A DNA stretch of 64,000 nt from Colwellia sp. RE-S-Sl-9. Its GTDB lineage: Bacteria > Pseudomonadota > Gammaproteobacteria > Enterobacterales > Alteromonadaceae. Positions 554 to 62,448 of this stretch are shown here, piece after piece. The DNA lies in assembly GCA_048296855.1 (NCBI GenBank), contig CP182631.1, one strand, 5' to 3'. How positions within the stretch are numbered: position 1 is the first letter of the stretch; every line of letters starts with the position of its first letter. The notes beneath the pieces are model-generated. The model saw nothing but the letters and a program-made list of their open reading frames with translations. It searched no databases and was not told the origin of the DNA. The position numbers and the translations under genes are program-made.

Positions 554-1321
554 ATGTCAGATATCGCCACTCAGTTTGCCGAAAATGGCTTTTACCATGC
601 TAAAGGTTTATTCAACGCAGCTGAAGTTAGTGTACTTGAGAAAGATTTTGAACAAATTGTTACACAACTAAATAACAGTAATGAAAACATCGACGCTACA
701 TGGAACGGAACAGAAACCAGACGTATAGCGTCTAAAAACGATACCATCTTGCATACTCATAATGTACAAAAGTATTCACGCAACTGGCTCGATGCATTCT
801 TACACTCAAAATTCTTACATGTCGCTGAGCAAATATTAGGAAATGATATTATATTGCATCACTCTAAGCTGTTTCAAAAACCATCTGAAAATGGTTCTCC
901 TTTCCCAATGCATCAAGACTGGTCATATTTCCCTACAGTCAAAGACACCATGATCGCAGGCATTATACATGTGAGCAATGCTACTGATGAGATGGGTTGC
1001 TTAAGAGTTTATCCTGGCTCCCATAAACTGGGAAGGATCGAAGGATCGAATGGCCGTCAGCCTAATAAGATTCTGGATCAATATCCTATTAAAAATGCTC
1101 AAGTGATTGAAGCCGAACCTGGTGACGTCGTTTTTTTCCACTACTTCACATTACATGGCTCCATGCCCAATCGCTCGAATAAAGTACGTAAAACTGTTCT
1201 TTGTCAACTTTATAATGGAGCTGATCATGTTGAACCAGAGAACAACCACCCCAACGAACGACTGGTGCTGCAAGGATGGAACCATCATATTTCTCGAGAT
1301 GAAGCAGGCTACAAACTGTAA
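554..1321 (+). CDS. phytanoyl-CoA dioxygenase (PhyH) family Fe(II)/2-oxoglutarate-dependent oxygenase
   Basis: 255-aa ORF with RBS AAGGAAA upstream. Carries the HQDW...HG motif pattern typical of PhyH-family dioxygenases (HxD...H facial triad). Confidence 0.7.
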   Translation: MSDIATQFAENGFYHAKGLFNAAEVSVLEKDFEQIVTQLNNSNENIDATWNGTETRRIASKNDTILHTHNVQKYSRNWLDAFLHSKFLHVAEQILGNDIILHHSKLFQKPSENGSPFPMHQDWSYFPTVKDTMIAGIIHVSNATDEMGCLRVYPGSHKLGRIEGSNGRQPNKILDQYPIKNAQVIEAEPGDVVFFHYFTLHGSMPNRSNKVRKTVLCQLYNGADHVEPENNHPNERLVLQGWNHHISRDEAGYKL

Positions 1322-1568: not shown

Positions 1569-2669
1569 ATGTCAACAATAAAAAATGCTATTACCCCTCC
1601 ACATAACCTTACATCTGAATCAATAATTAACCCACACGGTATGATAGTTGGTGAAGGCAAATTTAAATATCGAATAAACACCAATTGGGGAAAACTTGAT
1701 CCAGCAAAAATACCTGTGGAAAATTGTCACGACATCACCCTAGATTCAAAAGACCGAGTTATTATGGTGACTGATAATATTCAAAACAATTTTATTATTT
1801 ACAACAAAAATGGAGAGTTACTCGAGCATTTTGGTACCGAATTCCCTGGCGCGCATGCCATAAAAATTGTTCACGAAAATTCTGAAGATTTTATGTATAT
1901 TGTTGATAGCGGCTGGAAGTTAAATAGAAACTGGGATGGAGTAACAACTGGCAAGCCTGACTCCCCTTACAACAAAGTTATTGGCCAATCAGGCTTCATT
2001 GCCAAATTAAATATGCAAGGCGATATAATATTCACTATTGGTCACCCGCAAACTATTGGAATATATACACCAGACATGCCGTTTAAGCCAACTGATATAG
2101 CAATAGCCCCTAATGGGGACATATATATTACTGACGGATACGGCTCCGATTACCTTATACAATACGATAGTCAGGGGCGATATATTCACCATTGGGGTGG
2201 TCACGATAATACAGATACTCACTTAAACTTATCAAATACACATGGAATCAATATCGATTTACGAAATCCATTAGATCCCCACCTAGTGGTTAGCTCTAGA
2301 GCTGAACGAGCATTAAAATTATTTTCATTAAATGGTGAATATCGTAAAACTATTTCTGTACCAGGAGCATGGATTGGAGGTCCTGTTTTCAAAGGTGAAT
2401 ATTTTTATGCCCCCGTTTGTTGGTCTGATGTTGACGGTAAAAAAACTGATAATTCAGGGTTTATTTCTATTTTTGATAAAAATAATCAAGTAATAGCTAA
2501 TATTGGTGGTGAAAAGCCAATATATATAAACGGCGAACTACAGCCAATGAAAAGCACCAAGGATATATTTCATCATTGCCATGGAGTGTGTGTAGATGAT
2601 GATGGAAACTTATATGTTAGTCAGTGGAAGGCAAATCATACATATCCGATTAAACTAGAAAAAATATAA
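1569..2669 (+). CDS. NHL-repeat beta-propeller protein (peptidylglycine amidating lyase-like)
   Basis: 366-aa ORF with repeated 'ITDGYGSDYL / YVSQW' NHL-type blades. Confidence 0.55.
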   Translation: MSTIKNAITPPHNLTSESIINPHGMIVGEGKFKYRINTNWGKLDPAKIPVENCHDITLDSKDRVIMVTDNIQNNFIIYNKNGELLEHFGTEFPGAHAIKIVHENSEDFMYIVDSGWKLNRNWDGVTTGKPDSPYNKVIGQSGFIAKLNMQGDIIFTIGHPQTIGIYTPDMPFKPTDIAIAPNGDIYITDGYGSDYLIQYDSQGRYIHHWGGHDNTDTHLNLSNTHGINIDLRNPLDPHLVVSSRAERALKLFSLNGEYRKTISVPGAWIGGPVFKGEYFYAPVCWSDVDGKKTDNSGFISIFDKNNQVIANIGGEKPIYINGELQPMKSTKDIFHHCHGVCVDDDGNLYVSQWKANHTYPIKLEKI

Positions 2670-2883: not shown

Positions 2884-4164
2884 TTACTGCCTAGGCTCAA
2901 CCATAATAACTCTAAAGTCATTCACATTGGTATGTGTTGGGCCTGTAATAATTAAATCATTCAGCGCTTCAAAAAAATGAAAACTATCATTCTTCATTAA
3001 ATAATACTCAAGCGACAACCCTTTCTCTTGTGCTCGTTCTAACGTAGCTTCATCAATAAAAGCACCAGCAACATCTTTATTTCCGTCAACGCCGTCTGTA
3101 TCACACGCTAACGCTGATATTCCTTTAGCACCCTTTAATTCTTTAGCTAACGCAAGCATGTATTGTTGATTAGGTCCGCCATCCCCAGATTCTTTATCTA
3201 AAGTAACCGTAAGCTCTCCACCTGAAAAAAACAATGTGGGTTCATTCAACGTTTGCGCTTCTAAAGCGATTTTTGCATGTTCTGCGGCGACTTTATTCGC
3301 ATCACCCACTTCATCATAATTAAGAACTTTAATTTTCCATTTCGACAAATCAACACTCGCAATCGCTTTATCAATAGACTGTCGAGCATTAGCCATAATA
3401 GTAAAATTTTTAATAAGCTCTGGAGATATTGACTGATCAGAAATGCTTTCTTTAGCGGGTTCAGCAAGCAGCGCCTTTTCGACTGAAGCAATAGGCTCCC
3501 AATGGTATTTCCTTAATACACTAAGAGCTTGTTCACCTGTAGTAGAATCTTTGACCGTAGGACCCGAAGCTATAGTTGCAGGATCATCGCCTACTACGTC
3601 AGAAATAATTAAGGTATAAAACTCGCCTTTAATGGCTTGAGCTAGCTTGCCACCTTTTATTTGAGACAGTTGTTTGCGCACACAATTAATTTCGTCAATA
3701 GAAGCTCCAGAGCCTAATAAAAACTTATTTAATTGCATTTTTTCTGCAAAACTAACACCTTCAATAGGTAATGAAAGTAAAGCAGAACCTCCGCCTGAAA
3801 TTAAAAAAACGACTGGTACATCTTTAGGTACGCTCTGAGCTAAAGCTAAAATTTCTTTACCTGCGTTAATACTCCCTTCATCAGGAATAGGATGACCTGC
3901 CGTTAATATTTTAATACGACCAATACTTGAGTTATTGGTATAGCCATGGCGAGTAACAACCGTTCCATAACATTTTTCTCCAAAGAACTCGTGCATAGTA
4001 TTAGCCATATCCACAGCGGCTTTTCCTGCTCCTATTACACATAAACCGTTACTGGCATCTATATTTTCAAGATGTTTTGGCATACATACCGACGGTAGAC
4101 TTTCGTTTACTGCGATTTCAAATAAATTTTGTAAGAATTTTTTAGTTTTCATTGTATTACACAC
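2884..4164 (-). CDS. glycerate 2-kinase, MOFRL family (hydroxypyruvate reductase/glycerate kinase GckA/TtuD-like)
   Basis: 426 aa with the conserved MOFRL C-terminal block 'DTDGVDGNKDVAGAFID' and an N-terminal DUF4147-like region. The true start may be the second Met (4152). Confidence 0.8.
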   Translation of the reverse strand: MCNTMKTKKFLQNLFEIAVNESLPSVCMPKHLENIDASNGLCVIGAGKAAVDMANTMHEFFGEKCYGTVVTRHGYTNNSSIGRIKILTAGHPIPDEGSINAGKEILALAQSVPKDVPVVFLISGGGSALLSLPIEGVSFAEKMQLNKFLLGSGASIDEINCVRKQLSQIKGGKLAQAIKGEFYTLIISDVVGDDPATIASGPTVKDSTTGEQALSVLRKYHWEPIASVEKALLAEPAKESISDQSISPELIKNFTIMANARQSIDKAIASVDLSKWKIKVLNYDEVGDANKVAAEHAKIALEAQTLNEPTLFFSGGELTVTLDKESGDGGPNQQYMLALAKELKGAKGISALACDTDGVDGNKDVAGAFIDEATLERAQEKGLSLEYYLMKNDSFHFFEALNDLIITGPTHTNVNDFRVIMVEPRQ

Positions 4165-4206
4165 ATAAAATAAAAAACAAAGGACCTTTCGATCCTCTGT
4201 TAAAAG

Positions 4207-5787
4207 CTAACTAAATAACAGCGGGATTGATAAACAAATAGCGATCATCACAAAAAAGTAAGCCACTAAAATAACGATATCTTTTTTTGTTAAAATAGCA
4301 GGAGTATCAGCTAAAGAAGTTAATGATGGGTTATAAGCCATACGCTCTGTTTTATTAAAAAGTAAAATTCCATATGCAACAACACAAGTCACAATTAACC
4401 CAACCAAGTTCCACCAAAACCAAAACAATTCAGGCACGCATAACCAGAGGAAAATATTAAATGCTACCCCCGAAAGAAGTCCAATATTAATCTGTAAAGC
4501 ACATAAACGTTTATCAAAAACAGCCAATAAGAAAATGGCTAAAATAGGTCCATAAAAAACAGAGCCCACTTTATTTATAGCTTCAATCACGGTTGCGGCG
4601 ATATCACCTGCATACAGAGAAAGTGTTAAAGTAACCACTCCCCATATAATCGACGTATATTTCGCGTATTTCATATACGTTTCATCGTCAGGCTTCTTAC
4701 CAGAAATACGACAATAATCCTCTACCGTAACCGCTGATAATGAATTAATAGTTGAACTTAATGACGACATTGCCGCAGCTAAAATAGCCACAATTAAAAT
4801 ACCTATCATGCCATGAGGAAGATAGTTAATAATAAACACAGGCATCATCATATCGCTTTTATCTTGCGGTATTAACTCAGCAAAACTTGCATCAGTTAAA
4901 GCTAACGTACCAATAATTAAGCCTGAAAAACAATAAAGTAAAGTAACAGGAAAGCGTAAAAAGCCATTCGCCATCATCATTTTTTTAAGTTGGCTGGGAT
5001 CTTTTGCCGAAAGTGCACGTTGGGTTTGAGTTTGGTCACAACCGTAATAAGAGGCATACAAAACGATACCGCCGAATACCATAGGTAAAAAACCAAAGCC
5101 ATCACCTTCCACACCATAGGATGAGAAATTAATCGCCTGTAAACGAGATTGATCTACGTTTTCCAATAAACTACTAATACCACCGAGATGACTTAAGCCA
5201 AAATAGATACAAGCAACCGTACCTAATACGATAATAATCATTTGAATCGCATCACCATATACAACGGCTTTCATTCCACCCTGAAGTGAATATAACAGAG
5301 TGATAACACCTACCAATACAATAGACTGCCATAATGTTATGCCCATAGTAGCAATAAGAATAAGTGACACAGCATAAATCATGATACCGGTAGAAAAAGC
5401 ACGGCTAAATTGAAAAACAAAACTGATAACCAATCGGGAAGAACGCCCAAACCGTTGCTCTAGATAGTCGTAAATACTAACAACCCCCGAACGATACAAA
5501 ACGGGTAATACAGTAGATAAAACCAAAATCATAGCTAGTGGAACAGCTAATTCGTAAGACAACCACTGCATTCCACCACCTTCTCGAAGTCCAACAAACG
5601 CAGGTGCAGATACAAAACTAATCGCCGAAAGTTGTGTTGCCATTACTGACAACGTTAGAGGCTTCCAGCCTAGTGTTCTACCACCTAAGAAATAATCAGA
5701 TTTAGTTGATTGTCCCCTAAGTTTGAATCCCATATAAACAAGTAGGAAAAGATAAACAGCAATAATGCCATAATCAAGAATATTCAT
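4207..5787 (-). CDS. sodium:solute symporter (SSS) family transporter
   Basis: 526 aa, about 13 predicted TM helices, SSS-family signature regions. Confidence 0.8.
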   Translation of the reverse strand: MNILDYGIIAVYLFLLVYMGFKLRGQSTKSDYFLGGRTLGWKPLTLSVMATQLSAISFVSAPAFVGLREGGGMQWLSYELAVPLAMILVLSTVLPVLYRSGVVSIYDYLEQRFGRSSRLVISFVFQFSRAFSTGIMIYAVSLILIATMGITLWQSIVLVGVITLLYSLQGGMKAVVYGDAIQMIIIVLGTVACIYFGLSHLGGISSLLENVDQSRLQAINFSSYGVEGDGFGFLPMVFGGIVLYASYYGCDQTQTQRALSAKDPSQLKKMMMANGFLRFPVTLLYCFSGLIIGTLALTDASFAELIPQDKSDMMMPVFIINYLPHGMIGILIVAILAAAMSSLSSTINSLSAVTVEDYCRISGKKPDDETYMKYAKYTSIIWGVVTLTLSLYAGDIAATVIEAINKVGSVFYGPILAIFLLAVFDKRLCALQINIGLLSGVAFNIFLWLCVPELFWFWWNLVGLIVTCVVAYGILLFNKTERMAYNPSLTSLADTPAILTKKDIVILVAYFFVMIAICLSIPLLFS

Positions 5788-5901
5788 TGAAGTAACAGCC
5801 TTAGCCCAAATTTAGTGATTTAAGCAAGAATAAAATATAGTTATATGCTTTTACGCTGTGTAAATTACATCGGGTATTTTTTACATAACGTATAACTTTA
5901 T

Positions 5902-5938
5902 GAAAAAGGCAATACTTTTATTGGTATTGCCTTTTATT
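5902..5938. terminator. bidirectional intrinsic terminator downstream of the TonB-dependent receptor gene
   Basis: 10-bp perfect stem AAGGCAATAC / GTATTGCCTT with an 8-nt loop. It is flanked by an A-run upstream and a T-run downstream. Confidence 0.65.
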
Positions 5939-5956
5939 GGTATAACTTAATATTGA

Positions 5957-8437
5957 TTAAAAGTCATATCTTGCTGTAATACTAACTCTACGAGGTAACA
6001 CAGGACGGCCAACGAAGAATTCACCACCATTTACTTGACTATTACCTTGTCGTGGAGACCCTTCAGAAATACCTTCACTATCAAATAAATTCCAAACCCC
6101 TAAACCTAAACGGATTTGTTGTTCATTCATAAGCTCCCATGTATAACCTAATTCTAGTGTTGAAATAGTATGACTGTCTAATACAACACTATTACTGTCG
6201 TTAGCAAAAGCTTCGCCAAAATAGCTAAATGCTATACGAGCATCAACTGCGCCGTTATTATATGCAAAGCCAATATTACCTGATAAATCTGGCTGTCTAC
6301 TTGGTTCTTTACCGTCGTTATTTCCTTCTGCAAATTGAGCATCTTGATAAGTTAAGTTACCATCAATAATAAACTCATCAGAAATATTCCATCGAGCAAT
6401 AACTTCAACACCCGTTGTTTCAGTTGATAGCGTTGTTACTGTTTCAACAATCTCACCATTAAGGCCATTTTCAAACGTAACGCCACGTCGATTATCTAAA
6501 TTCGCCATAAATATTGATGCATCAATATATAAATCATCAGGAAAATACTTAATACCTAAAGTTGCTAAGGTAATATCTTCACCCTCGTAACTTTGCGGCT
6601 CACCATTTTCATTAAATTGAATACTTCTTAATTGCGGGAAGAAATACCCTTTTGAAGCATTACCATAAAGGTTAATGTCATCATCTAATTTATATAAAGC
6701 GGCTACTGAAAATGCAGCTTCTGTAGTACTAACTTCACCGTATAAAAACTGCCCATTACCAGTAGTATTAACTTGTAAATTTGGTGCTAAACTTGGGTCA
6801 TCATTTACAACAACACTTGTACTGCCTTCTGATTTTTGAGTTCCTTCAGAACGTTCAATCCTCATACCCACGTCAAACGCCCAATCATCATTTTCCATTT
6901 GATCGGTAATATATAATGCAGTACGGGTATTAGTAAGTTGCTTATTGGTATAACCAATTCCTGGCCCAACAACACCATTTTTAGAATATTGAACTACATT
7001 TCCTGCACCATCTGTAAATGATAGATCAACTAAACGAGCATTTTTACCATCACTAAAATCAGCTAAATAACTTGAAGTTATATTATAATCCATTTGTTCA
7101 GCATGAATAAAAAACGTACCTATATTTAACGTATGCTCAAACCCACCGCCTTCTAAAGTACCAGTAAGGTTAAATTCAGTACTGAAAAAACTACCATCAC
7201 GTTGGCGATCTAATAACCTATTACCAAATAATAACGTATCATTAGGTACAGCTTTGCCTGTTTCAGACCATGTATAGCTAGGTGTACCATATAAATCTGT
7301 TAAAGATTGTTTAGTACCATCACCATTCACATCAAAACCATGAGCTGCATTATCGGCATAACCTGCTAACGGCTCTGGAGAATTAGCAATACCATCACCA
7401 TCTAAAAAGAGGTTAAATTGATGGTCATAATCAGCTCCTTTTGCTTTAGCATTTAATGTCCAGCTATCATTTAAGTCTTTTTCAAACTCAATAGCAATTG
7501 AGCCACCAATTGTAGAAACACCATTTCTAATAGGTGATTCATAAGTACCATCTGCTGTTGGATAAGATAACTCAGCAGCAGAAACTGTTTGACCTACATA
7601 AACGGTACCACCATCATTACCTGTTAACCTTTCTCTGCTCTCTCCATCAAGAGGTAATGGTAAGAAAAACTGTACTTGATCATCGATCATTTGACCTGAT
7701 ATTTTGAAAAAACCATCATCAAATTCTTTAAGAATGTTACCGCGTAATTGATAACCTTTGGTAGGTAAGCCTGAATCTAATGGCCCTTCGTCGTATCTAT
7801 AATATCCAGACATAGCATAATATAGATTATCTTGGCTTGATAATGGTCCGCTAGTATAAAAATCGGTTCTTAAACGACCATCTTCTGCAATTTCTACTTG
7901 AACGGTACTTTCTGGATCATCTGATCCCGTTTTAGAAATATAGTTAATAATACCAACTACAGAGCCAGGTCCAAATAAGTTAGAGACACCACCGCCAACA
8001 AATTCAACACGTTCGATACCTATATCTGCACGATAATAAACATCTTGTGCTGAAGATGTTAGTCCAGACTGAAATGTTGGCATACCATCAAAATTTAAAG
8101 GTGTAAATTGAAATTGCCCGCCAGAAGGTAAGCCTCGAACAAAAGCGTTAGTTGCAACTTCACCACCACCGCCTTCAACTTTTATTCCCGGAACACTCAT
8201 TAGCATATCAGCTTGGCTACTAAAACCTTTACGAGCCATATCTTCATTACTAAACCATGTAGTTTTTGCTGGAGTATCAGCTTCAGTACGCTGTACGCTT
8301 GAACCTGTTACAAGAATAACTTCAGTATTTTCTGCTGCTTTTTTCTTGTCTGCAGACACTTCTTCTGCAGCCCACGTAAATGTAGATGATGTAGCTAAAG
8401 CAACCATAATAACTTTAGATAATATATTTAATTTCAT
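5957..8437 (-). CDS. TonB-dependent outer-membrane receptor
   Basis: 826 aa with a signal peptide, an N-terminal plug with a TonB-box-like segment, and a C-terminal beta-barrel ending in an aromatic residue (…RYDF). Confidence 0.9.
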   Translation of the reverse strand: MKLNILSKVIMVALATSSTFTWAAEEVSADKKKAAENTEVILVTGSSVQRTEADTPAKTTWFSNEDMARKGFSSQADMLMSVPGIKVEGGGGEVATNAFVRGLPSGGQFQFTPLNFDGMPTFQSGLTSSAQDVYYRADIGIERVEFVGGGVSNLFGPGSVVGIINYISKTGSDDPESTVQVEIAEDGRLRTDFYTSGPLSSQDNLYYAMSGYYRYDEGPLDSGLPTKGYQLRGNILKEFDDGFFKISGQMIDDQVQFFLPLPLDGESRERLTGNDGGTVYVGQTVSAAELSYPTADGTYESPIRNGVSTIGGSIAIEFEKDLNDSWTLNAKAKGADYDHQFNLFLDGDGIANSPEPLAGYADNAAHGFDVNGDGTKQSLTDLYGTPSYTWSETGKAVPNDTLLFGNRLLDRQRDGSFFSTEFNLTGTLEGGGFEHTLNIGTFFIHAEQMDYNITSSYLADFSDGKNARLVDLSFTDGAGNVVQYSKNGVVGPGIGYTNKQLTNTRTALYITDQMENDDWAFDVGMRIERSEGTQKSEGSTSVVVNDDPSLAPNLQVNTTGNGQFLYGEVSTTEAAFSVAALYKLDDDINLYGNASKGYFFPQLRSIQFNENGEPQSYEGEDITLATLGIKYFPDDLYIDASIFMANLDNRRGVTFENGLNGEIVETVTTLSTETTGVEVIARWNISDEFIIDGNLTYQDAQFAEGNNDGKEPSRQPDLSGNIGFAYNNGAVDARIAFSYFGEAFANDSNSVVLDSHTISTLELGYTWELMNEQQIRLGLGVWNLFDSEGISEGSPRQGNSQVNGGEFFVGRPVLPRRVSITARYDF

Positions 8438-8729
8438 TTCTTACTTCCCCGTATAACATGTTGATATTTAATTGTTTTAAAATTCATGTCCAGTTATTAA
8501 TAAACAAAATGTTTGCAGTTAACTCAATTTAATATAGTTCATTTCACGATAAATTCTATCTTAGATTTTAGTTAACCTATTTTTTGCTTGTTTACTAATT
8601 ACTCACTACAGTAAAACATATAGTTTTTTTCATTTCAACCCAAAATAGGTTTTATTTATCTTGATATCGAGTTCGATTTAATGATTTAATACCCATAACG
8701 AGTTATTTATATTTAGAGAGAGTATAAAA

Positions 8730-9998
8730 ATGACAGATAAAAATGCATTAATAGAGCAAGCAAAAAATATTTTAAAACGGAACGATGTAGACGGTTACAC
8801 AGTGCCTACACATGACTTATATCCCTTTCAGTGGAATTGGGATGCCGCTATTACCGCCTTAGGATGGATGAAATTTGATGAAAGCCGTGCATGGCTAGAA
8901 ATAGAAATGCTATTAAAAGGTCAATGGGATAATGGCATGGTGCCACATATTATTTTTCATAAGCCTGTAGATACCTATTTCCCAGGACCAGATGTTTGGG
9001 GGGTTAAAAATGAGATCCCAACAACGGCAATATCACAACCTCCTGTACTTGTTAGTATAGTTAAAATTATGGTTGAGCAAGCAACTGACAAAGCCCTAGC
9101 TGAAAGCAAGTTAGCTGAAATGTTACCTAAACTTATTGCCTATCATCAATGGTGGTACAACGACCGAGATCCCGAAAACACAGGCCTTGTTGTGAGCTAT
9201 CATCCATGGGAATCGGGTATGGATAACAGCCCAGCTTGGGATGAAAGTTTAGCTGCCGTACCTCCGGTAAACTATACCTATAAACGTAAAGATCTCGATC
9301 ATGTTGATTCAGACGAACGACCTCATGCAGAACAGTATGACCGCTACCTTTACCTTGTTGATTTTTTCAAAGAATCAAACTTTGACAGTGAAATCATTTA
9401 TAAAAATTGTCCATATAAAGTCAATGACTTAGGTATCATTACAATACTACACAAAGCCACTAAAGATCTTATTTCTCTTTGTAAAAAATCAAACTCAAAC
9501 GAGCAAGAAGTGACTTGGTTTAATGAGCAATTGGCATTAACAGAAAAAGGGATTAATACCCTTTGGAGCAATGAACATAACAGCTTCTTGAATAAAGATG
9601 TTATCACTCAAAAATTATCTCCTGTGTTAACCACCGGAACCATGCTCGTTATTTATGCTGAACTTGCTTCAACCGAACAAATGAATGTTCTGAAGCCTTT
9701 ATTAAATGACTGGTTAAACGAAACTAAATATTGTATGTCTTCAACCTATGCTAAATGTGAAGCGTTTGAGCCACAAAGATATTGGCGCGGTCCAGTATGG
9801 TTACATATTAACTGGATGATCGCATTAGGCGCTGACAGCTATGGCTTAACCGAAGAAAGCGCACAATTAAAAGCAGAATCAGAAGAGCTATTAGTAGAGT
9901 TTGGTTACTTCGAATATTTCAATAGTAAAACAGGTGTAGGCTGTGGCGGTGACGATTTTTCGTGGACTGCAGCAATCGCATTACATTGGTTTTTATAA
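8730..9998 (+). CDS. GH63-like (alpha/alpha)6 glycoside hydrolase, mannosylglycerate/glucosylglycerate hydrolase-type
   Basis: 422 aa, the size of the catalytic domain only. It carries a 'YHPWESGMDNSP' block typical of GH63/MGH/GgH enzymes and has a good RBS. Confidence 0.65.
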   Translation: MTDKNALIEQAKNILKRNDVDGYTVPTHDLYPFQWNWDAAITALGWMKFDESRAWLEIEMLLKGQWDNGMVPHIIFHKPVDTYFPGPDVWGVKNEIPTTAISQPPVLVSIVKIMVEQATDKALAESKLAEMLPKLIAYHQWWYNDRDPENTGLVVSYHPWESGMDNSPAWDESLAAVPPVNYTYKRKDLDHVDSDERPHAEQYDRYLYLVDFFKESNFDSEIIYKNCPYKVNDLGIITILHKATKDLISLCKKSNSNEQEVTWFNEQLALTEKGINTLWSNEHNSFLNKDVITQKLSPVLTTGTMLVIYAELASTEQMNVLKPLLNDWLNETKYCMSSTYAKCEAFEPQRYWRGPVWLHINWMIALGADSYGLTEESAQLKAESEELLVEFGYFEYFNSKTGVGCGGDDFSWTAAIALHWFL

Positions 9999-10019
9999 AG
10001 TATAAAGAGAGATAGACTA

Positions 10020-11012
10020 ATGAAATCAGTCATTTGTTTTGGTGAAGCCCTTATCGATTTTTTAAATACTAATCGATTTGAAGAAAAGCCTTTATGGTTA
10101 AATGAGTTTCGACAATACCCCGGCGGCGCGCCAGCAAATGTTGCTGTAGCCATAGCAAGGTTAGGTGGAACATCTTTATTTGCAGGACAAGTAGGTAAAG
10201 ACAGTTTCGGTGATTTTTTAGAGCAAGCACTTACTTGTTATCAAGTAGACACTCGATTAATGAGCCGTCACCCCACTGCAAAAACAGCACTTGCGTTTGT
10301 TACACTCGATGAAGAAGGTGATAGAAGTTTTACCTTTTTCAGAGAAGCTACAGCTGACTTATTGTTTAAACCTTCTCAAGTAGATGAAAACTGGTTTACT
10401 CACTCTTCTATCTTTCATTTTTGTAGTAATACGTTAACCAATGCAGATATTACCGAAACCACACAATTTGCAGTAACTATGGCGAAAACAAAAGGACTAA
10501 CCATTAGTTTCGATGTTAATTTACGCCATAATTTATGGCTAAATGAATCGGTAAACATTGAACGTGTTAATGCCTTAGCTGAACAGGCTCATGTATTAAA
10601 ATACTCAAAAGACGAATTAGATTTCCTCGCCCAAGGAAAGCAAAAAGCTTATATCAACAAATTAATCACCCAAGGTGTAATGCTGGTGCTTGTAACTGAT
10701 GGCCCTGATACCATTCATTACTATAGTAGTACTTGTGCTGGAACGGTTAATCCACCATGTGTAAATGCTGTAGATACTACCGCAGGTGGGGATGCCTTTA
10801 TTGGCGGCTTTTTATTTGGTTTAAACAAAATTAGCCAAACAAGCTCAACTAAACAACATCTAACTTCAGTAAACTCAATCATTCCTTTAATCAACTTTGC
10901 AGCAGCTTGTGGTGCGCATGCCGTTACTAAACCCGGCGCATTCCCAGCACTCCCAATATTTGATGATGTATCTTCAAGTTGGCAATTAAACTCATTCGAT
11001 AATAAATCGTAA
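10020..11012 (+). CDS. PfkB-family carbohydrate kinase (fructokinase-like)
   Basis: 330 aa with N-terminal GG motif and C-terminal 'DTTAGGDAFIGG' anion-hole motif of the ribokinase/PfkB family. Confidence 0.85.
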   Translation: MKSVICFGEALIDFLNTNRFEEKPLWLNEFRQYPGGAPANVAVAIARLGGTSLFAGQVGKDSFGDFLEQALTCYQVDTRLMSRHPTAKTALAFVTLDEEGDRSFTFFREATADLLFKPSQVDENWFTHSSIFHFCSNTLTNADITETTQFAVTMAKTKGLTISFDVNLRHNLWLNESVNIERVNALAEQAHVLKYSKDELDFLAQGKQKAYINKLITQGVMLVLVTDGPDTIHYYSSTCAGTVNPPCVNAVDTTAGGDAFIGGFLFGLNKISQTSSTKQHLTSVNSIIPLINFAAACGAHAVTKPGAFPALPIFDDVSSSWQLNSFDNKS

Positions 11013-11027
11013 ATAAAAAGGCCGAAT

Positions 11028-12203
11028 ATGAATTTTTATAGCTCTGAATTTTTAACACAACATAGCCAATCTATTCTTGATTTTTATGACAATAGTGTTG
11101 TTGATCAAACTGGCGGTTATTATCAAAATTTTTATGATAATGGCGAAGTTTTTAATGGGGGTTTTCGCCAATTAGTCAGTAGTACACGTATTATTGTTAA
11201 CTATGCTATGGCAGGAATAGCCTTTAATAAACCAGAATACTTTACGATTGCAAAGCATGGTCTTGATTACCTAGAACAAATACATTGGCAAGAAAAAAGC
11301 CAAACCTATGCATGGACTTTAGAAAATCATCAGCCTCTTGATATGACACAACAAGCCTATGGTTACGCATTTGTTTTATTAGCCTATGCCGCTGCTAAAA
11401 AAGCCAATATTATAACAACCGATGAGCCATTATTAAAAACTTATCAGTTATTAGAGCAACGCTTTTGGCAACCTGAATTTGGTTTATACGCCGATGAAAT
11501 TAACATGCATGGAGAGCTGAATGACTATCGTGGCCAAAATGCCAATATGCATTTATGTGAAGCTATGATTGCCGCTTATGAAGCAACCCATAATAATTTA
11601 TTTTTAGACAGAGCTTTTCTCATTGCTGAAAATATAGCTCAACGTCAAGCAAGTTATACCAATGGTTTAATTTGGGAGCATTATAAAACCGACTTTTCTC
11701 CTGATTGGGAATACAACAAAAATGATCCTAAAAACTTATATCGTCCTTGGGGATTTCAGCCAGGTCATCAAACCGAATGGACAAAGCTATTATTAATGCT
11801 TAACCGTCACAAACCGACTGCTTGGTTAGTTGACACAGCAAAAGTATTATTCGATAAAGCGATGGATGTTGCATGGGATGAAACTCACGGCGGACTTATT
11901 TACGGTTTTGATCCTCAAGGAAATTGGTGCGACGACGACAAATACTTTTGGGTACAAGCAGAAAGCTTTGCCGCTGCCGCCATGTTACATAAAGCAACAG
12001 GTGAAGAAATCTATTTAACTCATTACAATAAACTGTGGCAATATAGCTGGGATCACATGATCGATCATACCTATGGCGCATGGTTTAGAGTGTTAACGCG
12101 TGATAATAAAAAAATGTCTGATGAAAAAAGTAGCGCTGGTGCAAAATGCGACTACCACACGTTAGGCGCTTGTTTAGAAGTATTAAGAACAATAACACCC
12201 TAA
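11028..12203 (+). CDS. AGE-family (N-acylglucosamine 2-epimerase superfamily) sugar isomerase/epimerase, possibly mannose isomerase
   Basis: 391 aa with (alpha/alpha)6 AGE-family sequence features. The start is 16 nt after the PfkB stop, so the two genes are operonic. Confidence 0.65.
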   Translation: MNFYSSEFLTQHSQSILDFYDNSVVDQTGGYYQNFYDNGEVFNGGFRQLVSSTRIIVNYAMAGIAFNKPEYFTIAKHGLDYLEQIHWQEKSQTYAWTLENHQPLDMTQQAYGYAFVLLAYAAAKKANIITTDEPLLKTYQLLEQRFWQPEFGLYADEINMHGELNDYRGQNANMHLCEAMIAAYEATHNNLFLDRAFLIAENIAQRQASYTNGLIWEHYKTDFSPDWEYNKNDPKNLYRPWGFQPGHQTEWTKLLLMLNRHKPTAWLVDTAKVLFDKAMDVAWDETHGGLIYGFDPQGNWCDDDKYFWVQAESFAAAAMLHKATGEEIYLTHYNKLWQYSWDHMIDHTYGAWFRVLTRDNKKMSDEKSSAGAKCDYHTLGACLEVLRTITP

Positions 12204-12216
12204 TGTTAAAAATACT

Positions 12217-12277
12217 TGTTATCTCAATATGCGTGTTACCTAAAGCACGCATATTAATAATTCAGTAGATAACAATA
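12217..12277. promoter_or_regulatory. extended palindrome (TTGTTATC..AATATGCGTG-N10-CACGCATATT..GATAACAA), candidate operator or terminator
   Basis: Perfect 10-bp arms at 12226-12235 and 12246-12255, plus outer 8-bp arms at 12217-12224 and 12270-12277. No T-run follows. Lies between the AGE gene and the ROK regulator gene. Confidence 0.35.
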
Positions 12278-12374
12278 TCTGATTAAACAAAACAAACCAC
12301 CAAAGGTTTTAACTTATTCTAAAAAAGATGTTTTAATAACTGCCTGTTACATAATATAAATTTTGGTTACTTGA

Positions 12375-13532
12375 ATGCTAGCGTACAATGATAAAGGTTT
12401 ACTTAGGTCTGGCTTTACTCTAGGCAAAGGAGATAAGCTTTTTCAACATAATGAGCGTGCAATATTAAAGCACGTTTTTTGGAATAAAAATGTCACCCAA
12501 AGCCAAATAGCAGAAGTGACTAAAATACCACAACAAACCATGTCTCGTATGGTTAAATCTCTTATTGATCTAGGCGCATTAAATCAAACTGATACCATCA
12601 GCTCTTCATCTCGCGGTAAACCAGGTACGAACTTAGAACCTAATCCTAATTACGCATATACCTTTGGTCTTTCTATTTTATTAAATGCAATAGCCATTAC
12701 CGTGATGAACTTTAAAGGTGAAGTGGTAGGTACACAATTAATAGAAATGGAAGACATGAGTATAAAACACGTATTAAAAAACGTGAGTCTATTAATTGAT
12801 GAATTATCGTTAAAGTATGAAATTCCGTATGAACGCATATTAGGTATGGGCGTAGGAATATCAGGATTTTTTAGTTCTATGGATGGAAAAATGAACACTC
12901 ACCATGCATTAGAAGAATGGGCGCAAATTAACATAGCCAAAATAGTAGCAGATACTTTTAACCTACCTACATGGGTAGTGAACGATGGTACAGGCGCTGC
13001 TGCAGGAGAAGGTATTGTAGGAAAAGGCAAAGAATATAAAAACTTTGTTTACTTATTTATTTCTTCGGCTTTTGGTGGTGGGTTAATTAACAATCTCGAT
13101 ATACTAAAAGGCACATATGGTAATGCTGGAGAGATAGGTGACATGCTGCCTCCTAAACTCTATAGCCACCCTAACTTAGAACTATTTCGCCGTATTTTAC
13201 TTAAAAATGGCATTGAGATGCCGTCTATTTATAGCTTAAACGAAACTTACGATCCCCAATGGCCAGGTGTAGATGAATGGATATATAAAGTACAAGACTC
13301 GTTTGATCTAGTTGCAACCTGTAGCTCTGCCCTATTAGATACTCAAGCCATTATTATTGGTGGGCATATCCCGAAACAACTCGCTGAAAAAATAATTCCC
13401 CGCATTGATGTTTATGCTCAGTTTCGTCGCGGAGAAAAAAGACCGCAACCTAAAATTGTATGTGCCGAAGTTGTTACTAACCCTGTAGCTGTAGGTGCTG
13501 CAACACTCCCATTACGTGATTGGTGTTTTTAA
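12375..13532 (+). CDS. ROK-family transcriptional regulator (NagC/Mlc-like)
   Basis: 385 aa with an N-terminal wHTH (QSQIAEVTKIPQQTMSRMVKSL) followed by a ROK sugar-kinase-like domain. Confidence 0.8.
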   Translation: MLAYNDKGLLRSGFTLGKGDKLFQHNERAILKHVFWNKNVTQSQIAEVTKIPQQTMSRMVKSLIDLGALNQTDTISSSSRGKPGTNLEPNPNYAYTFGLSILLNAIAITVMNFKGEVVGTQLIEMEDMSIKHVLKNVSLLIDELSLKYEIPYERILGMGVGISGFFSSMDGKMNTHHALEEWAQINIAKIVADTFNLPTWVVNDGTGAAAGEGIVGKGKEYKNFVYLFISSAFGGGLINNLDILKGTYGNAGEIGDMLPPKLYSHPNLELFRRILLKNGIEMPSIYSLNETYDPQWPGVDEWIYKVQDSFDLVATCSSALLDTQAIIIGGHIPKQLAEKIIPRIDVYAQFRRGEKRPQPKIVCAEVVTNPVAVGAATLPLRDWCF

Positions 13533-13538
13533 GTTAAA

Positions 13539-13555
13539 CAACCCGCATTCGGGTT
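13539..13555. terminator. short hairpin between the convergent ROK and AraC genes
   Basis: AACCCG-catt-CGGGTT, overlapping the AraC stop codon. Weak. Confidence 0.25.
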
Positions 13556-14384
13556 AAATAAGATCAGTTTTCCTAAATAATCCTGGGGGCAAACCAATTG
13601 ATTTTTTGAAACGTTTTGAAAAATTAAAAACATCTTTGTAACCCACTTGTTCCGCTATTTGTTCAATTGACCACGTGGTATTTTTTAATAAATACTTTGC
13701 CCGCTCCATACGTAAAAAGATCAAATGCTGGATAGGACTCCTCGTAAAATGTTTTTGAAATAGTCGATATAAATGTGGCGATGAGTAATGAATAATCTTC
13801 CCCATATCTTCAACAGTCCAATTGAAATGAAGTTTTTTTTCAATATCTCGTATAAGTTGAGCAAGTTTTTGATGATCAGATGCACCTAAAGACTCTGCAC
13901 ATAAGGTTTCGTCTAAATAGTATTCAAGCTGTTTAACTGAAGGCTGTCGTAAAATACTGGAACGTTCGTAATAAATAAAACTTAATATATGAAAAATTTG
14001 CCTACCGCTTTCACACAATGCGACCGAAGGTCTATTCTCACATAACGTTCTCCAATGTAAGCAATCGTTTAAATCAAACCATACCATCGAAAAACTTTCA
14101 CACTGTAACTCTATTAAAAAAGGTTTATGAGCAGGAAGCGTAACTAAATGGCCTTTATCAATGGTTTGTTGACCTTTTTCAGTGTGTAGCTCTAATGAAC
14201 CATCAACAACATAAAAGATGGTATGGCACATAGGATCTGCCCTACCCACACAATACTTACCTGATAAAAATGAAACGCCACACAACTTAATTTCAAGCTT
14301 GTCTAACTCAGGCACTTTATTACACTCAACAAAGCGTTCATTGCATTCTGGGCCAATTTCTAATACATCTAACCATTCGGCCAT
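13554..14384 (-). CDS. AraC/XylS-family transcriptional regulator
   Basis: C-terminal AraC HTH (IEQIAEQVGYKDVFNFSKRFKK...) and an N-terminal cupin-like sensing domain. The start is placed at the Met preceded by AAGGAG; the track ORF extends 7 codons further, to 14405. Confidence 0.8.
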   Translation of the reverse strand: MAEWLDVLEIGPECNERFVECNKVPELDKLEIKLCGVSFLSGKYCVGRADPMCHTIFYVVDGSLELHTEKGQQTIDKGHLVTLPAHKPFLIELQCESFSMVWFDLNDCLHWRTLCENRPSVALCESGRQIFHILSFIYYERSSILRQPSVKQLEYYLDETLCAESLGASDHQKLAQLIRDIEKKLHFNWTVEDMGKIIHYSSPHLYRLFQKHFTRSPIQHLIFLRMERAKYLLKNTTWSIEQIAEQVGYKDVFNFSKRFKKSIGLPPGLFRKTDLI

Positions 14385-14542
14385 ACATGCTCCTTTTTCG
14401 AACAATGATAGTTTTGGATAAATATAAGATAGATTCCCCCATAAAACAATAATCCATTACATATTAAAATAGCATCAGTAGTTAGTTAACCCACTAACAA
14501 GTTTTTACTTAGTAAGATATATTTTTATTTGAGGAGTCACTT

Positions 14543-14839
14543 ATGACCAACATTGAAATCTTAGGATTTACATCAGCATTTTTAACAACATTTTCTTTTC
14601 TTCCTCAAGCAATACAAGTGATAAAAACACGTGATACTGCATCGTTGTCTTTAGCTATGTATAGTATTTTTACGGTAGGTGTTGGTTTTTGGTTAGTATA
14701 TGGAATAATTAAAGAAGACAGTGCCATGATAGTTGCTAACATGATCACTTTTATTTTATCTTCTATAATATTATCAATAAAAGTATATAACGATTTACAG
14801 GTTAAACGTCATACAGAGCCCTTGACTGAATCTATATAA
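14543..14839 (+). CDS. SemiSWEET (PQ-loop/MtN3-like) sugar transporter
   Basis: 98 aa with three TM helices and the conserved 'LPQ' motif in TM1. RBS GAGGAG upstream. Confidence 0.7.
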   Translation: MTNIEILGFTSAFLTTFSFLPQAIQVIKTRDTASLSLAMYSIFTVGVGFWLVYGIIKEDSAMIVANMITFILSSIILSIKVYNDLQVKRHTEPLTESI

Positions 14840-15255: not shown

Positions 15256-16962
15256 ATGACGATAAAGACTCGCCTAATGGCAATACTTATTGCCATTATC
15301 ATCTTACTACTTGGCGGCATTGCTGCGGAAAACATAGCAAGCCACAAAAATACAATTCAAACAAAAAGTAGTACAACTCGTTACCTTTCCTATCTACTTG
15401 CCGATGAGTTTCGTCAAACATCAATGGATCTTACGAGACTTTGCCGTACTTTCGTCGCAACCGGTAACAATGAATACTGGGAAGCTTACTGGGATATTGT
15501 TAAATGGCGAAATGGTGATATTGAAAGACCTGAATATGTGGATGTAAATTTATACCGAGGAAAAAAGAAAAAACAAAGTGACATCATGAAAGAATTAAAC
15601 TTTTCTCGTGCTGAATTCGCCTTACTAGACGAAGCAAGTAAAAATTCCAATGGATTAATAGAAACAGAAACACAAGCAATGGAATCAATAAAGGCAGGTA
15701 AAATTGTAACAGGCCCATTTAAAGCTTTACCTAACGAAACTGTTAACGATTTTGCATTACGTATCGTTTTTAACAAAGCCTATCATCAAGAAGTAAATAA
15801 TATAATGGCACCTGTCGATAAGTTTTTCTCTAATCTTGATCATCGAACTTCAACTGAATTGAAAAATTCTCAACAGGAAGCTGCTTTTTGGCTAAATATC
15901 AGCTTAAGCATTCGAATACTTATCGCGCTTCTAGTGATCGCATTAATGTTTTTTATCATTCAAACATTATTCAAGCCTCTAAAACACGCTACTTCTGCTA
16001 TGTTAAATATTGGCGAAGGTGATGGTGATTTAAGTAAACGTTTAGATGAAAGTGGTAAAGATGAACTATCTTCTTTGGCTCGTGGTTTCAATTTATTCGC
16101 TAACCATATTCAACAAGTTGTAATAGAACTACGCGACGCTATTAATGATATTTCAGCATCTTCCTCTCAATTAAGTTCTACGGTAACTCAAACTGACCAA
16201 GCAATTTCAGAGCAAAAAAATGGTATCGAAAAATTATTAAAATCTCTAGAAGACATATTACCTGCCGTTCAAGAAATTGCGACAAATGCCTCTCAAGGTG
16301 TTGAGTTAGCAAAAGAATCCAATCACGCTGCAGCAGAAGGATTAAAAGTTGTTGATCAGGCTATCAATAATATTAACTTGTTAGATACCGATATAGAGAA
16401 TGCCTCCGATGTAATAGACACATTAGCAACCGACACAGATAACATTGGCTCGGTATTAGATGTTATACGAGGCATTGCAGACCAAACTAATTTATTGGCA
16501 TTAAACGCCGCGATTGAAGCGGCAAGAGCTGGTGAACAAGGCCGAGGATTTGCCGTTGTCGCTGATGAAGTTCGTACCTTAGCCCAAAGAACCCAAGACT
16601 CTACATCTGAAATTCAATCAATGATTGAAAAGCTACAGGTAGGCGCTAAACAAGCCGTTGAAGTGATGTTAGAAAGTAAAAACCGCACCGCAGCCTGCGT
16701 CAGTAATACAAGAGATACTGGCGATTCACTAGGAAAAATAACAGAGTCTGTCGCATCTATAATGCATATCAATACGCAAATAGCTTCTGCTACTGAAAAG
16801 CAGAACAACACAATAGATGAAATAAAAAGTAATGTAGACAATATTAACCAACATATTGAACAAACAGCTCAAGGCTCAAGAGAAACCGCAAATAATAGTC
16901 AATATACGAGTCAATTATCTGGAAAAATCAAAATACTCGTTGATCAATTTAAAACGTCATAA
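15256..16962 (+). CDS. methyl-accepting chemotaxis protein
   Basis: 568 aa with an N-terminal TM helix, periplasmic sensor domain, second TM helix, HAMP domain and a highly conserved MCP signalling domain ([34 protein letters not shown]). Confidence 0.9.
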
Positions 16963-30944: not shown

Positions 30945-31009
30945 TTAAGACTCCATGATGCTGTATGAAGCCTTTAATGGTAAAGGCTTCATCTATTTAC
31001 TGAAAAAAT

Positions 31010-32992: not shown

Positions 32993-33067
32993 GTGTTTTT
33001 CCTCTTATTTAAAACATAGCCACACTATTGGCGGCCAAATAGATTGTAATTTTGTAAAATGAATAAG

Positions 33068-33700
33068 TTAGTGAGAGTAAGGTGCAACAATATAAGTGTG
33101 GCTGTCTTTTAGGTACTCAATTACGAGTACTTCATCCCCCTTTTTTAGCGTGTGCTGCGGATCACAGCGTACATCAAAGAGTATTTCGGCCCCCTCGTTA
33201 AATAAACGTGCTTGGCCAAAGCTGTCGCTTACGGTACTTGTAGCTATAATGGCATTTTTACCAACTAGATGATGACTTGTCGTAGTTTCAACGCTTGTAA
33301 ACATGCCCTTTATAGGACGAAGAATGACCGCAGCAATGGGAAGTGATATTGCAAAAACAATAACATCAGTTATAGCCCCCATCACGTAATATAACCAACC
33401 GTCAGGTAACCAAGTAAGTAGGTATAATTGAAGATAAAAACTGATCAACCAACAAATAAGAACAATAATGCTGATCACAAGTGTAAAAGGCACGCCAGTT
33501 AAACCAAAAGTAAGCATTAAGCCGGTGAGTCCACCAATAGAAATTTCAGGATCCAGATCTATATCAAGTTCAGCATCACCTGAAAAGCCTAAATCGACAA
33601 GTCCCAACATACCTACAAGCCAATACACGACCACAACACCTAGTAGGGTTGAATATATAACAGTGGGGAATTGTGAAGCGACTTGAAGCAGTTGTTCCAT
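33068..33700 (-). CDS. yqiJ: NfeD-like inner-membrane protein (YqiJ family)
   Basis: 210 aa with several TM helices and a C-terminal OB-fold-like soluble segment. It lies immediately upstream of the flotillin gene, as in the E. coli yqiJK operon. Confidence 0.65.
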   Translation of the reverse strand: MEQLLQVASQFPTVIYSTLLGVVVVYWLVGMLGLVDLGFSGDAELDIDLDPEISIGGLTGLMLTFGLTGVPFTLVISIIVLICWLISFYLQLYLLTWLPDGWLYYVMGAITDVIVFAISLPIAAVILRPIKGMFTSVETTTSHHLVGKNAIIATSTVSDSFGQARLFNEGAEILFDVRCDPQHTLKKGDEVLVIEYLKDSHTYIVAPYSH

Positions 33701-58247: not shown

Positions 58248-58255
58248 AATGTCTC

Positions 58256-58876: not shown

Positions 58877-58878
58877 GG

Positions 58879-59292: not shown

Positions 59293-59407
59293 CTTTTTAC
59301 CTTACTGTAAACTTTTTATGTAAATCTCCTTGAGATCATTACCAAGGAGTATTCATTATTTCCTACGGCTTGAATTAATTCAGCCAAGTAGAGTTAAAAT
59401 TTTTAAA

Positions 59408-59935: not shown

Positions 59936-59938
59936 GAT

Positions 59939-61324: not shown

Positions 61325-61346
61325 TTTATAATTCCTATTACCGTAC

Positions 61347-62135: not shown

Positions 62136-62448
62136 ATTAAAACCTTTTGTTGAAATTCAATAGTGTTAAACGCTTTTAGCAAAACGCCTATTCAATATAC
62201 TGCTATAATTGGGCACATTTTAAAGGCCAAATATGACAACTTGGTTTCACGAATATTGCATATTTGTTACATGACAGTTAGGTGACATTTTTTTTACAGG
62301 AAAGGTTTTATTAACAAAGCGTTAATCGTTATAAGGTTATATTTAAAGATTTGAGATAGTGTTCATCATCACTTTCCCCTAAAATGCGGTAACGTAAATC
62401 AGTAATAAATTAGATCACCCAACATGAGTTACCTTTAAACCTACTGTT

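Follow-up and report, generated by a model that had tools for sequence, protein, structure and literature searches.

A cluster of genes in a 64,000-nt stretch of the genome of Colwellia sp. RE-S-Sl-9 (contig CP182631.1 of GenBank assembly GCA_048296855.1; this whole stretch is called the window) encodes a TonB-dependent receptor (TBDR), a Na+/solute symporter (SSS), a GH63-family hydrolase, two kinases, an isomerase-like protein and transcriptional regulators. A sequence-only reading of positions 2884-14839 had interpreted these genes as a route for the uptake and catabolism of mannosylglycerate (MG; digeneaside). All nine open reading frames (ORFs) on which that reading was built were present at their coordinates, and the families assigned to them were confirmed using the ORF list, Pfam and NCBIfam:

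2884-4164, minus strand: glycerate 2-kinase-like protein (DUF4147 + MOFRL), 426 aa; Pfam
4207-5787, minus strand: Na+/solute symporter (SSS/SLC5), 526 aa; Pfam and NCBIfam
5957-8437, minus strand: TBDR (Plug and barrel), 826 aa; Pfam
8730-9998, plus strand: MGH1-like GH63 protein, 422 aa; PF22422
10020-11012, plus strand: PfkB protein, 330 aa; PF00294
11028-12203, plus strand: AGE family protein, 391 aa; PF07221, 340 bits
12375-13532, plus strand: regulator with a winged helix-turn-helix (wHTH) and a ROK domain, 385 aa; Pfam
13554-14405, minus strand: AraC regulator; Pfam/NCBIfam
14543-14839, plus strand: SemiSWEET; NF037968, 104 bits (cut-off 80)

The core order is glycerate kinase–SSS–TBDR, divergent from GH63–(PfkB)–AGE, plus the ROK gene. 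The plus-strand enzyme genes are tightly packed, with 21 nt between GH63 and PfkB and 15 nt between PfkB and AGE. GC content was uniform (0.33-0.39) over the composition profile and therefore gave no sign of a foreign island.

We compared this locus with the best 80 genomic loci encoding a GH63 homologue and with further loci such as L081-L085; among them L001 is Pseudocolwellia agarivorans, L083 is Colwellia sp. MB02u-9 and L085 is Paraglaciecola hydrolytica. The closest genome was P. agarivorans QM50 (L001), whose GH63 protein showed 93% amino-acid identity. Within 7 kb of the GH63 homologue, a TBDR gene was found at 20 of the 80 loci, a ROK gene at 16, an SSS gene at 14 and a MOFRL kinase gene at 10, and an AGE gene lay within about 10 kb at 13/80. 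Such repeated co-location over 80 loci argues that the grouping is not due to chance. At least six genera share the full set with gene order and orientation unchanged (kinase-SSS-TBDR divergent from GH63-AGE, plus ROK); carriers of the cassette are a Kangiellaceae metagenome-assembled genome (MAG), two species each of Paraglaciecola and Alteromonas, Colwellia sp. MB02u-9, P. hydrolytica and, lacking AGE, Aestuariibacter.

TBDR homologues (41-82% identical) adjoin the GH63 gene in 20/80 loci, SSS homologues (53-94% identical) neighbor the TBDR gene in the 14 scanned loci that have an SSS gene and also in L081-L085, and MOFRL-kinase homologues adjoin the SSS gene in L001, L002, L004, L005, L007, L009, L077, L083 and L085. 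AGE follows GH63 or GH63-PfkB directly in L001-L005, L007, L009, L083, L084 and L085, follows the TBDR gene in L025, L027 and L037, and in L006, L010 and L045 occupies another position within the 10-kb flank. PfkB sits between GH63 and AGE, as it does in the window, in Pseudocolwellia, the Kangiellaceae MAG, Colwellia and P. hydrolytica (L001, L002, L083, L085). ROK homologues, 42-97% identical, occur in 16 loci also bearing a TBDR gene, with the ROK gene placed after AGE here and in L001 and beyond the glycerate kinase in other genera. The operon ends differ: Colwellia sp. MB02u-9 has a phosphoglucose isomerase (PGI) gene directly after AGE (L083 13475-15133), and P. hydrolytica has GH29/GH2 genes.

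By the same comparison, the AraC and SemiSWEET genes and an adjacent gene for a methyl-accepting chemotaxis protein (MCP) recurred beside the cassette only in the sister species P. agarivorans, and all three were rejected as members of the locus. The conserved unit is therefore 2884-13532 rather than the 2884-14839 proposed earlier, and the suggestion that SemiSWEET might take part in uptake is not supported. The AraC gene (13554-14405, minus strand) is divergently paired with the SemiSWEET gene (14543-14839, plus strand), a pairing seen only here and in L001, which looks like a separate small unit predicted to have been inserted beside the cassette; an exact-match look-up of the SemiSWEET protein gave no match.

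Outside the genera with the full cassette, the hydrolase gene appeared in variant settings. Novosphingobium has ROK divergent from TBDR-glycerate kinase-GH63-MFS-ROK-type hexokinase, where MFS is a major facilitator superfamily transporter; a Caulobacterales MAG has TBDR divergent from GH63-LacI-glycerate kinase-MFS; and Pseudomonadales MAGs have ROK-TBDR-SSS divergent from GH63, with a tartronate-semialdehyde-reductase-like gene beside ROK. The recurrent link to glycerate in these three variants supports a glycosylglycerate as the substrate. Rubrivivax and Burkholderiales MAGs carry GH63-TBDR-AGE, and many Alpha- and Betaproteobacteria carry GH63 with LacI and an ABC transporter; apart from loci of this ABC type, LacI was seen with GH63 in a single Caulobacterales locus only. 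Woeseiaceae-type loci (L008, L010, L081, L082), the source of the 417-aa GH63 matches examined, have the order ROK-TBDR-GH13_18 (sucrose-phosphorylase-like)-SSS-GH63, and in the metagenome contigs L081 and L082 an Fer2 and molybdopterin oxidoreductase pair comes after it. No flavobacterial entry was found among the named ones in the best 80 genome loci and best 120 proteins.

The 422-aa protein is most likely a cytoplasmic GH63 mannosylglycerate/glucosylglycerate hydrolase, as judged from its sequence relatives and its predicted active site. Its best solved relative was the mannosylglycerate hydrolase (MgH) TTHA0978 of Thermus thermophilus (Tt8MgH; E 3e-110, 42% identity), followed by the glucosylglycerate hydrolase (GgH) of Mycolicibacterium hassiacum (MhGgH; E 2e-55, 33% identity), and fold, catalytic Asp/Glu and substrate residues match those of these two enzymes and of Rubrobacter radiotolerans MgH. 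The MGH1-like profile PF22422 aligned end to end (290 bits; residues 31-413, profile positions 1-356 of 356), whereas the match to YgjK (760 aa) was confined to C-terminal residues 343-415 of the window protein, which upholds the earlier assignment to the MgH/GgH type rather than the ~780-aa YgjK type. We then mapped by alignment the 19 catalytic and substrate-contact residues of MhGgH listed in PMC6608630. Eighteen of these 19 positions were identical in the window protein, including the catalytic pair D165 and E395 (MhGgH D182 and E419; Thermus D165 and E393) and the five direct contacts to glycerate in the +1 subsite, Y31, W35, Y83, R197 and Y351 (MhGgH Tyr36, Trp40, Tyr88, Arg216 and Tyr375). 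The sole difference, F410 in place of MhGgH Gln434, is the same residue as Thermus F408.

These residues bear on the possibility that the hydrolase has drifted in specificity and that the locus serves a different glycoside, such as mannosylglucosylglycerate, glucosylglycerol or an alpha-mannoside or alpha-glucoside from an algal glycan. MhGgH is inactive on glucosylglycerol and glucosylglycolate (PMC6608630), which indicates that the aglycone (+1) subsite is discriminating, and the window protein keeps the five glycerate contacts together with the arginine that pairs with the carboxylate. A glycerate kinase within the conserved core likewise argues against a drifted specificity, as does the rejection of a glycerol or glycolate aglycone by MhGgH. 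Pointing the other way are the missed NCBIfam equivalog cut-offs (detailed below), the view of the P. hydrolytica authors that their GH63 might be a new activity, and the GH29 and GH2 genes beside the P. hydrolytica cassette, with a GH2 gene 7 kb away here. On balance, we regard a different glycoside as improbable.

No signal peptide was seen at the N-terminus of the GH63 protein. The TBDR carries a signal peptide (MKLNILSKVIMVALATSSTFTWA/AEE) and a TonB-box-like EVILVTG, and together these features indicate that hydrolysis is cytoplasmic and follows import. The TBDR matched Plug (49 bits) and barrel (82 bits) models and siderophore-type models only weakly; it is not SusC-like, and there is no SusD-like ORF in the locus. 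It is predicted to provide high-affinity uptake of the glycoside across the outer membrane. The symporter (PF00474, 142 bits; TIGR00813, 223 bits, cut-off 184) had as its best solved relatives carriers of anions, namely SMCT1 (1e-44), NIS, SMVT and the sialic-acid transporter SiaT (2e-35), with the neutral-sugar carriers SGLT1 and vSGLT ranking behind (6e-31 and 1e-29). This kinship fits a carboxylated glycoside as cargo, and the SSS protein is predicted to import the intact glycosylglycerate across the inner membrane. Thus the uptake route through TBDR and SSS, as first proposed, was borne out by families and synteny at the level of sequence. Elsewhere in the window, positions 56940-62135 on the minus strand hold a TonB2-type cluster (DUF3450, a 461-aa MotA/ExbB-family protein, three small ORFs that are likely ExbB/ExbD/TonB, and a TPR protein), a candidate energizer for the TBDR.

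Every characterized MgH or GgH acts on a solute of the cell's own making, and those of Thermus, Rubrobacter and Mycolicibacterium turn over their own osmolyte, with no uptake-linked role reported for them in these papers (PMC6608630, PMC5381378). The hydrolase could by analogy recycle an endogenous compatible solute, as in Thermus and Mycobacterium, with the transporters being unrelated or serving re-uptake. The arrangement here is hard to square with such a role: the TBDR and SSS genes stand in tight, divergent linkage with the hydrolase operon and share a conserved dual operator with it, the catabolic kinases and the isomerase speak for consumption as a carbon source, and no glycosylglycerate synthase-like gene was found among the scanned window ORFs, several window ORFs being unscanned or without a Pfam match. 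We consider recycling very unlikely, and the hydrolase appears to be placed within a regulon for import and catabolism.

The enzymes encoded around the hydrolase would account for both products of glycoside cleavage. The glycerate kinase has a DUF4147 + MOFRL architecture (PF13660, 241 bits; PF05161, 124 bits), and its best solved relatives were PH0495 (E 5e-70) and Thermotoga maritima TM1585, annotated "glycerate kinase" (E 6e-68), in agreement with the predicted conversion of D-glycerate to 2-phosphoglycerate. The AGE protein was 53% identical (E 2e-129) to PDB 5x32, the characterized D-mannose isomerase of Marinomonas mediterranea (PMC7762179), and 51% identical to 3gt5; YihS-type isomerases reached E 2e-43 at best and GlcNAc or cellobiose 2-epimerases 1e-17 or worse. 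It is most likely, from these similarities, a D-mannose isomerase of the Marme_2490 type. The PfkB protein (PF00294, 188 bits) had fructokinases as its best solved relatives (3ljs, 9e-68; 5ey7, 1.5e-44). The nearest relatives are thus those expected if mannose is converted to fructose and then to fructose-6-phosphate, as originally suggested. A sulfoquinovose pathway (YihS/YihV-type) was tried as another explanation of the AGE and PfkB pair and was rejected: YihS matched far less well (2e-43) than the mannose isomerase (2e-129), the match to sulfofructose kinase was only 3e-09, and an aldolase and a reductase were absent.

The ROK protein combines a wHTH (MarR_2/HTH_24, residues 25-69) with a ROK domain (residues 104-259); among NCBIfam models, NagC and Mlc come nearest. 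Two 15-bp palindromic operator-like boxes (AACCCAnAATGGGTT), their starts 53 bp apart, lie in the 292-bp intergenic region between the divergent TBDR and GH63 genes, and two hairpins were found among the minus-strand genes:

8637-8651, no strand assigned: operator-like palindrome box 1, AACCCAAAATAGGTT; conserved pair and position weight matrix (PWM)
8690-8704, no strand assigned: operator-like palindrome box 2, TACCCATAACGAGTT; conserved pair and PWM
4176-4201, minus strand: terminator-like hairpin (11 stem pairs, then TTTTATTTTA, a T-run) within the 42 bp separating SSS from glycerate kinase; consensus scan
5904-5935, minus strand: perfect 12-bp hairpin AAAAGGCAATAC/GTATTGCCTTTT with an 8-nt loop and a trailing TTTTT, 22 nt past the TBDR stop codon; inverted repeat

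A 15-mer of the box 1 class precedes the GH63 start by ~90-137 nt in L001, L002, L003, L004, L005, L007, L009 and L077, and the box pair, 52-53 bp from start to start and ~105 and ~52 nt before GH63, was observed in seven other loci. The pair formed the sole standout conserved blocks of these intergenic regions, the rest of the DNA being unalignable. Related sites, single or paired, also occur elsewhere: ahead of GH63 in Pseudomonadales MAGs, in the ROK-TBDR interval of Novosphingobium, and ahead of the TBDR gene in a Woeseiaceae genome. A PWM learnt from the other genera alone, with the window excluded, was applied to the 64 kb and ranked box 2 first and box 1 third. Box 2 falls inside a GH63 promoter predicted by consensus scan (8686-8713, TTAATA-16-TATATT), between the -35 and -10 hexamers. 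The fusion of a wHTH to a ROK domain and the paired palindromes are consistent with a NagC/Mlc-type repressor, and boxes 1 and 2 are probably operators of the co-conserved ROK regulator, as far as sequence can indicate. The box motif differs from the NagC and Mlc boxes. The initial proposal had named both ROK and AraC as regulators; ROK is conserved with the cassette, but AraC accompanies it only in the sister species.

Two further elements were seen in this analysis. An A-rich conserved box (consensus TAAAACACACAAAA) lies ~20 nt upstream of box 1 (~8611-8625) and is present in all eight intergenic regions; it could be a promoter element or the site of a second factor. The second-best PWM match in the window, CACCCAACATGAGTT (62416-62430, 15.2 bits), precedes a sulfotransferase-like ORF (62449-63099) by 19 nt; as a single site it is probably a chance match and was rejected as a further operator.

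Taking these observations together, we think it probable that the locus is a ROK-regulated, TonB-dependent regulon for scavenging and catabolizing exogenous alpha-glycosyl-D-glycerates, with MG most likely the main substrate and glucosylglycerate (GG) a probable second one; the pathway withstood each sequence test applied to it, and the synteny across genera and the conserved dual operator in the divergent promoter region strengthen this reading. Gene content, residue conservation, synteny and the operator footprint are direct observations, from which substrate, transport, induction and repression are inferred. A plain TBDR, without a SusD partner, would bring the ~270-Da anionic glycoside across the outer membrane, and the SLC5-type Na+ symporter would move it intact into the cytoplasm. 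There, the signal-peptide-less GH63 enzyme would split it into hexose and D-glycerate, and the MOFRL kinase would convert glycerate to 2-phosphoglycerate. The Marme_2490-type isomerase would turn mannose into fructose and PfkB would yield fructose-6-phosphate, with PGI appended to the route in Colwellia, an addition consistent with channeling of fructose-6-phosphate to glucose-6-phosphate. Acting at the two palindromic boxes, which are spaced five helical turns apart, the ROK protein would repress both divergent promoters, that of TBDR and that of GH63, and the imported glycoside would presumably release it.

Several points weigh against this interpretation. All four enzymes scored under their NCBIfam equivalog cut-offs: the GH63 protein reached 323/550 bits against NF047898 (glucosylglycerate hydrolase; a GgH model by name, the protein being nearer to the Thermus MgH), the AGE protein 213/600 against NF051846 (Pseudomonas-type mannose isomerase), PfkB 226/450 against its best NCBIfam fructokinase model, PRK09434, and the MOFRL kinase 224/550 against the archaeal glycerate 2-kinase equivalogs, so that strict equivalog membership is not established. 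Single operator scores were within the range of shuffled sequence, and the weight of the operators therefore lies in their pairing, position and conservation. No convincing ROK box was found upstream of SSS, glycerate kinase, ROK or SemiSWEET. The hairpin between TBDR and SSS (5904-5935) resembles an intrinsic terminator or an attenuator, and that at 4176-4201 may be an attenuator or mRNA stabilizer; with hairpins after both TBDR and SSS, co-transcription of the minus-strand genes is not guaranteed, and these genes may be attenuated or separately transcribed. Woeseiaceae-type loci have GH13_18 in place of AGE and glycerate kinase. We found in the literature no growth, expression or transport study of members of the cassette. 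Finally, across all 80 proteobacterial GH63 homologues, 17 of the 19 active-site positions, F410 among them, did not vary, and variation at the other two, 73 and 84, did not track gene context; the hydrolase itself therefore cannot separate MG from GG, and active-site residues gave no means of telling the two apart.

This last point leads to the possibility that the physiological substrate is GG from picocyanobacteria or other bacteria rather than MG, with the isomerase and fructokinase in a side role or serving another source of mannose. MgH-type GH63 enzymes split MG and GG about equally (PMC6608630, PMC5381378), the same active site occurs in AGE-linked and AGE-less contexts, and GG is a major solute of Prochlorococcus (PMC11631117). 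Woeseiaceae loci moreover combine TBDR, SSS and ROK with a GH13_18 glucoside-phosphorylase-like gene and no AGE, which hints that the same chassis serves glucosyl substrates in those loci. Against GG as the sole substrate stands the placement of a mannose isomerase homologue after GH63 or GH63-PfkB in ten loci (here with gaps of 15-21 nt), given that neither isomerase nor fructokinase would be needed for glucose. The P. hydrolytica cassette, in turn, lies within a red-algal polysaccharide cluster. We therefore consider GG in place of MG rather unlikely, while noting that use of the two is not exclusive, since one locus could accept both.

The case for MG is that the tightly linked mannose isomerase and fructokinase, the extension of the Colwellia operon with PGI and the placement of the P. 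hydrolytica cassette inside a red-algal cluster resembling a polysaccharide utilization locus (PUL) all favor MG being a physiological substrate, if not the only one, in this lineage. The P. hydrolytica authors called the region of the cassette the agarolytic part of that cluster and flagged its GH63 gene as unexplained. Red algae of the Ceramiales store mannosylglycerate, and the nearest species to ours, Pseudocolwellia agarivorans, is agarolytic by name. The mannosyl assignment of the earlier analysis is thus favored by the linked isomerase and fructokinase and cannot be read from the hydrolase.

The core of this idea has already been published as a genomic prediction. "Digeneaside PULs" of the form LacI::TBDR::GH63::SSS::glycerate kinase were reported in 11 North Sea Flavobacteriia, with isolates of Cellulophaga, Maribacter and Zobellia; the supplement describes them as lacking SusD, with a TBDR that is not SusC-like, and credits digeneaside conversion to the Zobellia galactanivorans genome paper of Barbeyron 2016 (Kappelmann 2019, PMC6298971 supplement). 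A Maribacter study reuses the trait and likewise credits Barbeyron 2016 with the digeneaside degradation genes (PMC8072126). The two systems share a TBDR without SusD, GH63, SSS and glycerate kinase (here 2884-9998), plus one regulator, as well as the proposed substrate and the status of a genomic prediction; the likeness is one of gene families, and the phylum differs. The regulator is LacI in the flavobacterial loci and ROK with dual operators here, and the isomerase and fructokinase branch (with PGI in Colwellia) is not among the genes that the supplement lists for Cellulophaga PULs 44 and 55. The claim of a new PUL-like system is consequently overstated, the same four-family core having been predicted in Flavobacteriia (PMC6298971). 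The locus is a gammaproteobacterial variant that departs from the flavobacterial loci in phylum, in having a ROK regulator and dual operator, and in its mannose isomerase/fructokinase(/PGI) branch. We found in the literature no paper on the gammaproteobacterial cassette or on an MG or GG TBDR, and no experimental test of any version of a digeneaside-type locus.

Canonical Bacteroidota PULs have an adjacent SusC/SusD-like pair, whereas the window locus has no SusD-like ORF and lies in a gammaproteobacterium. A closer functional parallel is the sux locus of Xanthomonas campestris, a carbohydrate utilization locus containing a TBDR (CUT locus) that encodes the TBDR SuxA, the inner-membrane transporter SuxC, the amylosucrase SuxB and the repressor SuxR (PMC1790865). 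There, entry of a small glycoside via a TBDR, intact import, cytoplasmic cleavage and derepression only once the glycoside is inside have been established by experiment (PMC1790865); the sux locus differs in its substrate (sucrose), enzyme (GH13), transporter (MFS) and regulator (LacI). With TBDR, SSS, GH63 and ROK clustered, the window locus corresponds to a CUT locus as defined by Blanvillain 2007, and Colwellia and Pseudoalteromonas were noted as rich in such loci (PMC1790865). Glycosylglycerates are also degraded by GH13_18 glucosylglycerate phosphorylases, a different enzyme family acting by phosphorolysis, whose operons (Franceus 2017, cited in PMC11631117) include transporter-linked ones in Prochlorococcus (PMC11631117). 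A GH13_18-like gene accompanies GH63 only in the Woeseiaceae-type relatives and not in this window.

The enteric route is distinct, as had been proposed: no member of the families of the phosphotransferase system (PTS) EIIABC protein MngA, the GH38 enzyme MngB or the GntR regulator MngR was found in positions 1-25000 of the window with Pfam and NCBIfam. In the E. coli MngR/MngA/MngB system, reportedly described by Sampaio et al. in 2004, the PTS permease is said to phosphorylate MG and the GH38 hydrolase to act on the 6-phospho form, under a GntR regulator. The likeness lies in the use of exogenous MG as a carbon source, ending in mannose-6-phosphate or fructose-6-phosphate plus glycerate; the E. 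coli system has no TBDR, SSS, GH63 or isomerase.

Several neighboring genes were also noted. The cassette is flanked by genes for a PhyH-family dioxygenase (554-1321, plus strand) and an NHL-repeat protein (1569-2669, plus strand). Directly downstream are the MCP gene (15256-16962, plus strand), a gene for a CHASE8-PAS-GGDEF-EAL protein (17230-20115, plus strand) and a GH2 glycosidase gene (20327-22873, plus strand), with the MCP and GGDEF-EAL proteins conserved with L001 only (about 81% identity). The P. hydrolytica cassette is similarly flanked (L085 872-2960) by a gene for an NHL protein 67% identical to that of the window and by a split PhyH gene, and GH2 lies on the opposite side in both. 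The PhyH, NHL and GH2 flanks may be the remnant of a larger, shared red-algal utilization neighborhood. Further away, 25752-33700 on the minus strand is a three-gene cluster that encodes a protein of 1730 aa (DUF3686 "ATPase involved in DNA repair" + DUF7902 + AAA) and, upstream of it on the same strand, proteins of 660 aa and 210 aa; the latter two had no Pfam match, and none of the three proteins had a PADLOC match.

Glycosylglycerates are abundant osmolytes in red algae and marine cyanobacteria, and to our knowledge their consumption by heterotrophs is hardly known; outside the E. coli PTS route, we found only genomic predictions in the literature. The locus adds detail to this picture and does not open a new kind of system. 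We tentatively put forward, as something that may well prove too broad, that the ROK/TBDR/SSS/GH63/glycerate-kinase regulon, with its LacI/ABC, MFS and GH13_18 variants across Proteobacteria and Flavobacteriia, could be the main heterotroph sink for marine glycosylglycerate osmolytes, namely red-algal digeneaside and picocyanobacterial GG. If so, the TBDR and the SLC5-type symporter would be the first glycosylglycerate-specific transporters of the outer and inner membrane outside the enteric PTS, and the ROK protein would be a glycosylglycerate-sensing repressor acting via two looped operators. Should the pathway prediction for the locus itself hold, it would explain the "orphan" GH63 seen but left uninterpreted in the red-algal utilization cluster of P. 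hydrolytica and would supply marker genes for metagenomic and transcriptomic surveys, naming the transporters, the regulator and the operator for glycosylglycerate flux in widespread Alteromonadales.

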